IMG/VR virus record: IMGVR_UViG_2718217859_000011
Coordinates: 1-64,000 of that record
Reading direction: 5' to 3' (one strand)
DNA length: 64,000 nt
Source of the DNA: a virus
Lineage: Duplodnaviria; Heunggongvirae; Uroviricota; Caudoviricetes
The position numbers and the translations under genes were made by a program. Under the pieces are notes generated by a model. That model was given only the letters and a program-made list of their open reading frames with translations, did no database searches and was not told where the DNA came from. This document shows, piece after piece, positions 25,740 through 26,836 of this stretch (position 1 is its first letter; each line of letters begins with the position of its first letter).

Positions 25740-25867
25740 GGATATTTATCAGGATTTATCGGTTCCGAATCCCTGGATATGTTAAGTCTTCAGCCTGCCA
25801 GTGGTGGGCACTGGTGTTTTACCTGATGGCTGAAATATATCTGACAATTCCCGTCGAGGATTTAGCA

Positions 25868-26182
25868 ATGTATAACGATGAACATAAATATACCGCCTGC
25901 ATGCAGGCCATGAATGAACAATTTAAATCAGCATTCCTTAAACTCATTCAGCAAAACCACGAAGCAGTAAAATCCATTCAGGCTGAGCCGTATGGACACC
26001 TCACACCACCAACTCTCGACATTATGTCCAGAATATTAACACCAGCCATGCTTCTACGTCTGAAAGACAATATAAATGACTGGTTAAACGAAGAATTAAA
26101 CTACCTTGAATGTGAGTGGGATCATCATTACGCCAAATCACAAAAAGAACGCATCTTCCGTCGATTATCCGGCAACAGATAA
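25868..26182 (+). CDS. hypothetical protein (105 aa), convergent with late genes
   Basis: Plus-strand ORF in the S-R insert; GAGGA ~9 nt before ATG at 25868 (tracked ORF starts at 25814); AT-rich by eye; no family recognised. Confidence 0.45.
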   Translation: MYNDEHKYTACMQAMNEQFKSAFLKLIQQNHEAVKSIQAEPYGHLTPPTLDIMSRILTPAMLLRLKDNINDWLNEELNYLECEWDHHYAKSQKERIFRRLSGNR

Positions 26183-26191
26183 CGAGCCAGC

Positions 26192-26833
26192 TTATATACG
26201 TCCTTTAAGATAAGTCAGTCCTGGATGAAACCAGTAAGCCGGCACTTTTTTAAAGGGCGGATTATCAAAATCACGAAGAAGAGCCTCCCGCACAACTGCA
26301 TCCTTGTCCGCACCACTGGCCAGCGCTTCAATCTCAGCAGCTACCTGCAGATATCCCATGCAACGACCAATGCGCTTCATTAGTCCCTGCTTTTTATTGT
26401 TCTTCAGGTAATCAATGGCAAATTCAATGAGCGCCTCACTGTGCTGGTGCGATGCTGGTGTTACTTTTCCATCTTCACGGATCGTGATATTCCAGTCATC
26501 GCTTGTCACAATAAAAGATGGCCGATTATCCCCCCATTCCTGGTCTTTATCCGGTGCAGACGCAATAAAATAACGTTTATTGCCTTCCTCTCCGGCACTT
26601 TTAACTGTAATGGAGTACTTTTCTGACAATGCGGTCGGTAAAAACTTTTCCTGCAAAATCTTCGCAAAGGTCCTGCGAGCAATTTTGATGCAATCATCGT
26701 AAAACGCTGCTTCCTGCTCATCGCGGCGTTTTTTTTCATCTTCAGAAACCATCAGCACCGACAGTTTTTTATTCAGTTCAGTGATTTCATTTTCCAGGCA
26801 ACTTATGCGCTGATTCATTTCTTCATGGTTCAT
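26192..26833 (-). CDS. hypothetical protein (213 aa) with N-terminal coiled coil
   Basis: ATG 4 nt after the holin stop with GGGGAGAG SD inside the holin 3' end; AT-rich by eye; no family recognised. Confidence 0.5.
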   Translation of the reverse strand: MNHEEMNQRISCLENEITELNKKLSVLMVSEDEKKRRDEQEAAFYDDCIKIARRTFAKILQEKFLPTALSEKYSITVKSAGEEGNKRYFIASAPDKDQEWGDNRPSFIVTSDDWNITIREDGKVTPASHQHSEALIEFAIDYLKNNKKQGLMKRIGRCMGYLQVAAEIEALASGADKDAVVREALLRDFDNPPFKKVPAYWFHPGLTYLKGRI

Positions 26834-26836
26834 CGT

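Follow-up and report, generated by a model that had tools for sequence, protein, structure and literature searches.

The ydfR slot of an Escherichia coli prophage lysis cassette carries a DUF1327-less YdfR-family gene and a facultative antisense partner

We analyzed a two-gene segment between the holin and endolysin genes of a tailed phage, at positions 25,740 to 26,836 of a 64,000-nucleotide stretch (positions 1 to 64,000 of IMG/VR record IMGVR_UViG_2718217859_000011, hereafter the window). The segment is the variable "ydfR slot" of an S21-pinholin/signal-anchor-release (SAR)-endolysin cassette in a lambda-like E. coli prophage. Judged by homology, its late-oriented open reading frame, ORF-A, encodes a long YdfR-family protein without the N-terminal DUF1327 domain, and the convergent frame, ORF-B, encodes a conserved protein of its own. 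We read the two, with a probability of roughly 0.5, as a late-operon accessory protein and a partner encoded antisense to it, produced chiefly while that operon is silent. The two genes and their immediate surroundings are arranged as follows:

26837..27052, minus strand: S21-type class II holin (pinholin) S, 71 residues, PF04971 (E=1e-32), phrog_9876/phrog_20 "holin"
26840..26847, minus strand: Shine-Dalgarno-like GGGGAGAG of ORF-A within the last holin codons, read from the sequence
26192..26833, minus strand: ORF-A, 213 residues, in late-operon orientation
26183..26191: 9-nt spacer between the convergent stop codons
25868..26182, plus strand: ORF-B, 104 residues, antisense to the late operon
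25856..25860, plus strand: ribosome-binding site GAGGA of ORF-B, ending 7 nt before its ATG
25206..25739, minus strand: SAR-type phage lysozyme R, 177 residues, PF00959 (E=1.3e-24), phrog_7 "endolysin"

An earlier note on this DNA, made from the sequence alone, had described about 1.1 kb with two convergent ORFs between an S21-type pinholin and a SAR endolysin, and all of its coordinates hold. The pinholin, labeled "class II holin family protein" in RefSeq, forms the upstream boundary of the slot, and R, whose Gly/Ala-rich N-terminus LSAAVLALIAAGAPAP is of the SAR kind, forms the downstream one. The holin stop codon TAG is followed by ACG and then by the ORF-A ATG, which places ORF-A, as had been proposed, in position for translation from the late transcript. 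ORF-B is likewise the convergent unit with its own ribosome-binding site that had been described, a site kept as GAGGA or GAGG in the allele classes nearest the window and in Salmonella. The impression of AT-rich DNA was borne out by calculation, with GC contents of 43.4% for the insert, 40.0% for ORF-B and 44.2% for ORF-A; the flanking S and R genes reach 55.1% and 54.3%, respectively. E. coli strain 08-00022 matches the window at 100% identity over 50 kb, and both ORFs are annotated there as "hypothetical protein".

ORF-A matches phrog_1085 (E=2e-101), at profile positions 117-296 of 296 only, and aligns over 99% of its length, at ~60% identity, with the C-terminal part of 287-333-residue PF07041 (DUF1327) proteins. 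These long relatives score E=1e-41 to 1e-45 against PF07041; ORF-A itself has no match to that model even at E<=0.1 (gathering score 25 bits), nor any Pfam, NCBIfam, PADLOC or PDB match. In alignment, the long forms run from the DUF1327 domain through a beta-rich linker, a coiled-coil-like helix and a variable middle to a near-invariant C-terminal module (C-module), and the start of ORF-A falls exactly at their coiled-coil region. ORF-A accordingly comprises a coiled-coil-like helical part (residues ~1-64), a variable middle with a beta-hairpin and the C-module (~146-213), strongly conserved as GRCMGYLQVAAEIEA ... DFDNPPFKK ... W..PG..YLKGRI. It thus combines the signature of the long forms (GRCMGYLQ...PPFK...W..PG..YLK, with full-length homology downstream of DUF1327) with their genomic setting, in the late operon, in or beside a lysis cassette, and co-oriented with holin and endolysin. 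On these sequence features, ORF-A is a long YdfR-family protein that lacks the N-terminal DUF1327 domain.

Its relatives are concentrated in E. coli. Deep searches returned ~190 clusters, all from this species, some named "YdfR family" or "DUF1327 domain-containing", and an exhaustive profile search of 1.84 billion representatives with the ORF-A family returned only 42 clusters. Salmonella enterica and unassigned read assemblies are the sources of the distant clusters, which share both the C-module and a DUF1327-like N-domain. YdfR itself (b1555, in the K-12 Qin prophage) and the long forms of 268-333 residues occupy the same slot in the same orientation as ORF-A. The part that follows DUF1327 in the long forms (e.g. 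orf5 of Stx2 phage 86) is 60-87% identical to ORF-A and also belongs to phrog_1085. K-12 YdfR consists of DUF1327 only (103 residues), and ORF-A is the reverse case.

The DUF1327-less form, represented by alleles of 185, 213 and 222 residues, is by all sequence indications a common and selected form and no decaying fragment. The ratio of nonsynonymous to synonymous substitution rates (dN/dS) in ORF-A is 0.24-0.55 overall and 0.09-0.29 in the last 68 residues, which make up the C-module. An AlphaFold2 model from a 60-sequence alignment reached a predicted local distance difference test score (pLDDT) of 47 and was judged unusable. Within the 3' end of the gene (~26195-26262) we also observed a long-range complementarity of ~12 bp, between the PPFKK and the YLKGR codons (-22 to -28 kcal/mol), which is kept in all ORF-A/ORF-B allele classes and may merely follow from protein conservation.

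The kinship with YdfR raises the alternative that ORF-A acts as K-12 YdfR may do, either modulating RNase E or serving it as an adaptor, or else binding RNA and so tuning late mRNA stability, with ORF-B an unrelated moron. Morons are extra genes between the genes of phage operons, such as the lambdoid bor and lom, a concept due to Hendrix and colleagues. Besides the kinship of ORF-A with the long YdfR family, this alternative is favored by findings on K-12 YdfR, which binds RNase E in its catalytic N-terminal half, co-purifies with RNA and may bind RNA (PMC13232886). However, the interaction surface is YdfR residues 1-72, that is, DUF1327 (PMC13232886), so that the only activity reported for YdfR maps to the very domain that ORF-A is without. 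Overproduction of YdfR also had little effect on the transcriptome (PMC13232886). We therefore give this alternative little credence.

ORF-B matches phrog_1853 over its full length (E=1.5e-45), and its other allele classes match the same family at E=2e-44 to 3.5e-47; both proteins thus belong to catalogued phage families that the earlier note had not recognized. ORF-B has no significant Pfam or NCBIfam match. A deep profile search returned 35 clusters, all from E. coli, and the family is known so far only in E. coli and Salmonella. Named homologues are orf6 of Stx2 phage 86 and WP_000138558.1 (O157:H7, O26:H11), with 54-68% identity to ORF-B; they abut R in antisense orientation as ORF-B does, and all are annotated as hypothetical. 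Protein conservation begins at the methionine encoded at 25868, and in the most divergent class an in-frame stop lies just upstream of the equivalent methionine. The 118-residue RefSeq call is therefore too long, and the start given by the earlier note stands, with a product of 104 rather than 105 residues.

AlphaFold2 predicts a compact fold of five helices for ORF-B (pLDDT 85.8, predicted template-modeling score 0.78) from only 12 sequences. Fold searches had been envisaged for both proteins: that with ORF-B found no significant Foldseek relative (best E=2.1 in BFVD and 3.2 in the PDB), and the ORF-A model was too poor for one. A helix-turn-helix assignment (RpiR/HTH_6-like) was tried for ORF-B and dropped, as a borderline sequence match (E=0.066) had no structural support. 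Twenty residues are invariant in ORF-B from E. coli to Salmonella, and nothing among them resembles a catalytic or metal-binding motif. A mutual relationship of ORF-A and ORF-B was also rejected (hhalign probability 0.1%).

Because ORF-B lies antisense to the late operon, it could in principle be a chance frame, or merely the template of an antisense RNA against the late transcript. Consistent with such a view, no promoter was found for it, and its RefSeq starts are inconsistent (118, 104 or 90 residues). The substitution pattern argues strongly otherwise: between allele classes, which share 100, 73, 67-68 and 47-50% amino acid identity beside S and R genes that are mostly 92-100% identical, dN/dS is 0.22-0.52 in the ORF-B frame, whereas four of the five control frames give ~0.8-2.8. 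Similarly low values (0.22-0.61 among diverged pairs) were obtained for the remaining control, the antisense frame with the same third codon positions, but the window has no long ORF there. Moreover, ORF-B remains intact from 100% down to 43% identity across genera and yields the confident fold just described. A non-coding ORF-B is thus barely credible. By this sequence evidence both genes are under purifying selection, in agreement with the earlier proposal of two genuine accessory genes.

Neither protein has a predicted membrane-spanning segment or signal peptide. The maximal 19-residue Kyte-Doolittle windows are 0.76 for ORF-A and 0.94 for ORF-B, the grand averages of hydropathy -0.62 and -0.75, and the isoelectric points 6.2 and 6.5. 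For want of a membrane segment or signal peptide, both should be soluble and cytoplasmic. A membrane-type holin or antiholin, such as the 71-residue S21 form or T4 RI, was rejected for both ORFs, which have neither a transmembrane nor a SAR segment.

The earlier note took S and R to be normally contiguous and split here by an insert. This premise fails for this type of cassette, because a ydfR-type gene normally fills the slot: the K-12 Qin order is essQ-ydfR-rrrQ-rzpQ/rzoQ, and nearly all surveyed S21-type cassettes have something between S and R. In Stx2 phage 86, S is followed by orf5 (a 268-residue long YdfR), the convergent orf6 (the ORF-B homologue), R, ant and Rz. PhiR12_1 has a DUF1327 protein and an unrelated convergent ORF of 86 residues between S and R; strain ST866 has a 213-residue gene of the ORF-A type, a separate 75-residue DUF1327 gene and, again, an unrelated convergent ORF. 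The PhiR12_1 ORF, labeled "DUF1823" on a match below threshold, and the 95-residue ST866 ORF were both considered as kin of ORF-B and found unrelated. The latter (L005 2620-2907, plus strand) belongs to phrog_10490 and matches the candidate defence protein PDC-S51 only weakly and in part (E=2.5e-5). The S-R region is hence a mosaic hot spot rather than the site of a single insertion.

A survey of 60 unique S-to-R slots, drawn from 130 loci, showed how the two genes of the window are associated. A C-module gene occurs together with ORF-B in 29 of the 60 slots and without it in another 29, and every ORF-B copy in the survey lies tail-to-tail with a C-module gene, ~10-25 nt from the aligned C-module end. 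Alignment of slots with and without ORF-B revealed a 10-bp direct repeat:

25753..25762, minus strand: right copy of the direct repeat, CCGATAAATC
26163..26172, minus strand: left copy, CCGGATAATC, at the ORF-B deletion junction

Recombination between the two copies yields a slot without ORF-B, as found in relatives: L082 and L071, for instance, retain the 9-nt spacer and the terminal ~13 nt of ORF-B, which the repeat joins to the R leader. Since the 3' end of ORF-B persists at the junction, slots of this type are deletion derivatives that have lost ~410 bp.

The reciprocal loss also occurs. A third class of ORF-B, with ~70% nucleotide identity, is present in 648 complete E. coli genomes; its protein is 54% identical to ORF-B of the window (E=6e-23). 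In the two loci inspected, from O26:H11 strain 11368 and one O157:H7 strain, it stands alone between S and R without an ORF-A-type partner, and ydfR is cut to a 10-codon stub, MNKQYELVVK followed by a stop. One metagenomic contig retains an intact ORF-B next to a decayed C-module remnant and a frameshifted R. In a wider survey of ~125 ORF-B loci, ~81 were paired and ~42 had ORF-B alone, and all adjoined an S21-type holin or R except the Salmonella loci and a few cut by contig ends. ORF-B is thus always attached to a ydfR-type locus or its remnant. Of 5,426 complete E. coli genomes, at least 674 (~12%) carry ORF-B-family genes, including O157:H7, O26:H11 and O104:H4 strains; the figure is a lower bound, as a further 95 genomes carry the classes nearest the ORF-B of the window and may overlap with the 648. 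A scan of species-representative genomes with a narrow search pattern confirmed only Escherichia and Shigella; the Salmonella relatives came from the exhaustive protein search. By the sequence record, the pair is facultative, with ORF-B deleted in some lineages and ORF-A reduced to a stub or decayed in others. The earlier suggestion of a conserved module hence holds for the pairing, which extends even to Salmonella; the two do not always co-occur, as each gene is found alone in many prophages.

A prophage with two neighboring small genes in AT-rich DNA calls to mind a toxin-antitoxin, toxin-immunity or abortive-infection module carried as cargo, as the earlier note had also considered. The spread of ORF-B alleles (47-100% identity) beside nearly constant S and R is of the kind seen in arms-race genes, and ORF-B is retained in decaying prophages. 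Yet no known toxin or antitoxin fold or family emerged from Pfam, NCBIfam, PADLOC or the PDB at significant scores; against PADLOC-DB v2, ORF-A and the homologues had no match, and ORF-B had only a chance-level one to Cas6b (E=0.016). The genes are convergent and form no co-transcribed bicistronic operon, and ORF-A, in the late operon, should be silent in lysogens. Single-gene states occur in hundreds of genomes, which an obligate toxin or antidote should not tolerate. Given the orientation, these single-gene states and the absence of family matches, an obligate toxin-antitoxin pair is unlikely, and we regard a defence or toxin-immunity role at large as improbable.

The distant Salmonella relatives bear on the age of the pair. 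A Salmonella Dublin contig (L136) encodes a YdfR-long homologue, P0142, of 266 residues, the C-terminal half of which is 43.5% identical to ORF-A. The gene has Q/HicBA on one side and an HP1-type holin (PF16080) on the other; it thus precedes the holin and lies outside the S-R interval. Five nucleotides past its stop, on the opposite strand, ends an ORF of 105 residues with 43% identity to ORF-B (E=1e-32; 99.9% probability in hhalign); in L138, the spacing is replaced by an overlap of 8 nt. The equal divergence of both genes and the tail-to-tail geometry kept at a new location point to an old, co-inherited pair. With this pair and the deletion stubs in hand, the view of two independent genes that form no pair was dropped; the pair looks ancestral and the single-gene states derived. 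In three other distant contexts, a YdfR-long gene lies by a lysis cassette without ORF-B, so the partnership is facultative there too. As a separate observation, the HicA/HicB toxin-antitoxin pair of L136 (2127-2781) is encoded on the other strand, flanked by the genes for the Q antiterminator and the YdfR-long protein; HicA/HicB is also present in L142 and L143, and E. coli phages carry stx or other cargo at that position.

The same contexts weigh on a role in lysis timing, in which ORF-A, ORF-B or both would act from the cytoplasm on the pinholin or on how the SAR endolysin is released, and so adjust the moment of cell burst. The model here is T4 RIII, a cytoplasmic protein that supports lysis inhibition. 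Lysis regulators of this type are small, soluble and encoded with or near holin genes, as are the proteins studied here, and all contexts examined, whether from E. coli or from Salmonella-type contigs, place the YdfR-long family in the late operon, next to or within a lysis cassette. ORF-A is translationally close to S, with 3 nt between them, and the E. coli ORF-B family always abuts the 5' end of R. However, neither protein has a membrane segment or signal peptide, there is no sequence or fold similarity to such regulators, and ORF-B lies antisense to the transcript of the lysis genes. Each of the two genes is also dispensable, as many prophages show. In addition, holins from two unrelated families (PF04971 and PF16080) occur beside YdfR-long genes, which speaks against a binder specific for the holin. 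By analogy, then, a lysis-timing role is possible but doubtful.

How the two genes might be expressed can be gauged from the regulatory anatomy of the slot, in which a terminator scan identified one further element:

25793..25820, plus strand: stem-loop followed by a T-tract, terminator-like in the ORF-B sense

The distance from the start of this stem-loop to the ORF-B ATG downstream is 76-77 nt in the window, the E. coli alleles L118 and L020 and Salmonella L136, and the outer pairs of the stem show G.U to G-C changes among these alleles. Its stability in the window is unexceptional (-12.2 kcal/mol against -10.6 +/- 2.6 for shuffled sequences). As the same element recurs at the same distance in E. 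coli and Salmonella, it seems to be part of the ORF-B unit, and could be an insulating terminator or a leader element. Scanning of both strands turned up no sigma-70-like promoter, either in the window or in the O26 variant, and the aligned upstream regions of ORF-B have no -35/-10 elements in common. The L063 and O26 classes of ORF-B, and the O157 copies, have no upstream hairpin; L063 and O26 have a perfect TATAAT instead, seen in these classes only.

At the other end of ORF-B, the 9-nt spacer is too short for a terminator, and transcripts of ORF-A and ORF-B must therefore overlap. To reach R, the late transcript must also cross ORF-B in antisense, so that expression of the two genes is likely mutually exclusive. 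Under the reading we favor, at about even odds, ORF-A would be made only alongside the lysis proteins, in lytic growth, and ORF-B mainly while the late operon is silent, as in a lysogen. There ORF-B would most likely act by binding another protein, a role suggested by its being small, non-enzymatic-looking, fast-evolving and retained in decaying prophages. It might act on the YdfR-type protein, as its antagonist or as a safety partner, or might be a factor in its own right from which the host profits.

Several points weigh against this reading. That ORF-B is made in the lysogen is pure inference; no promoter for it was identified, and a hairpin with a T-tract upstream of a gene is an odd place for a terminator in a self-contained unit. 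Adjacency in one Salmonella lineage, one of four distant contexts, suggests coupling and is no proof of it, because adjacent genes co-diverge through linkage alone. Finally, the portal gene (~18183-19774) is annotated as frameshifted in the identical reference genome; with the lambdoid prophage probably defective, its late operon may never be expressed.

A stronger version of the proposed coupling would make the YdfR-long C-module gene and ORF-B a conserved, antisense-coupled two-gene switch on enterobacterial lysis cassettes. In the lysogen, ORF-B would either neutralize the late protein or, by convergent transcription, keep it silent, and leaky expression of S and R might be curbed along with it; upon induction, late transcription would shut ORF-B off, so that ORF-A could act on lysis or on RNA metabolism of the host. 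If true, such a switch would form a class of lysis or lysogeny safety devices not described before, though we consider it unlikely.

Irrespective of function, the locus can be set beside the morons introduced above, of which the classic form has its own promoter and a downstream terminator. Like morons, the slot genes have an atypical composition and vary in presence among near-identical cassettes; unrelated small ORFs replace ORF-B in some of these, and ORF-B is retained in defective prophages. With regard to the classic form, the scan found no promoter for ORF-B, its hairpin lies upstream, and no terminator separates it from ORF-A. Its unit is also convergent and transcriptionally overlaps a late gene.

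The flanking lysis genes and their neighbors showed further features. The pinholin begins with the dual-start motif MYQM (27041-27052, minus strand), with no basic residue ahead of the second methionine; the motif of S21 is MKSM. If the longer MYQM product is the antiholin, the usual charge-based mechanism may not hold. On the far side of R, the cassette continues with two small ORFs and then Rz/Rz1:

24868/24946-25128, minus strand: small ORF of ~60-86 residues
24724-24855, minus strand: small ORF of 43 residues
24260..24727: Rz/Rz1, in the minus-strand cassette beyond R and the two small ORFs

Both small ORFs have hydrophobic, transmembrane-like segments and belong to phrog_4906 and phrog_1115. 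The R-Rz interval is a second variable slot of the cassette, occupied by ant in Stx2 phage 86, and small membrane proteins encoded there could modulate lysis. Upstream of the holin (27613-28205, minus strand) lie genes for a TerB-family protein (143 residues, PF05099, E=2e-16) and a DUF3927 peptide, at the position where Stx phages carry stx and nanS-p. They are preceded by a phage tRNA cluster (28379-28632, minus strand), in which ARAGORN calls a tRNA-Arg(tct) and a tRNA with a CAT anticodon (Ile in RefSeq); RefSeq places a "tRNA-OTHER" between the two, for which there is no ARAGORN call. At ~37000-50000, a Mu-like prophage with a transposase, Mor and its own holins abuts a truncated helix-turn-helix gene at the lambdoid early end.

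Parts of this locus are already catalogued: both families exist as PHROGs and as RefSeq hypotheticals, and ydfR is a named occupant of the slot. In the literature searched, nothing relevant beyond PMC13232886 was found on genes between S and R, on DUF1327 or on convergent transcription of the late operon. DUF1327 is mentioned in a single paper of that literature, PMC13232886 is the one functional report on K-12 YdfR, and the S-R genes have otherwise been overlooked. New with respect to that literature are the modular family of DUF1327 domain, coiled coil and C-module together with its DUF1327-less form, and the conserved, facultative antisense partner ORF-B, traced through Escherichia and one Salmonella lineage with its deletion history. 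The S21-pinholin/SAR-endolysin cassette is the lysis module of most Shiga-toxin (Stx) phages and of many E. coli prophages (PMC10462455), and the timing of the lysis cassette governs toxin release. If neither protein affects lysis timing, late mRNA stability or lysogen fitness, the pair is one more well-defined orphan gene pair; if either does, it would bear on Stx release and on prophage domestication.

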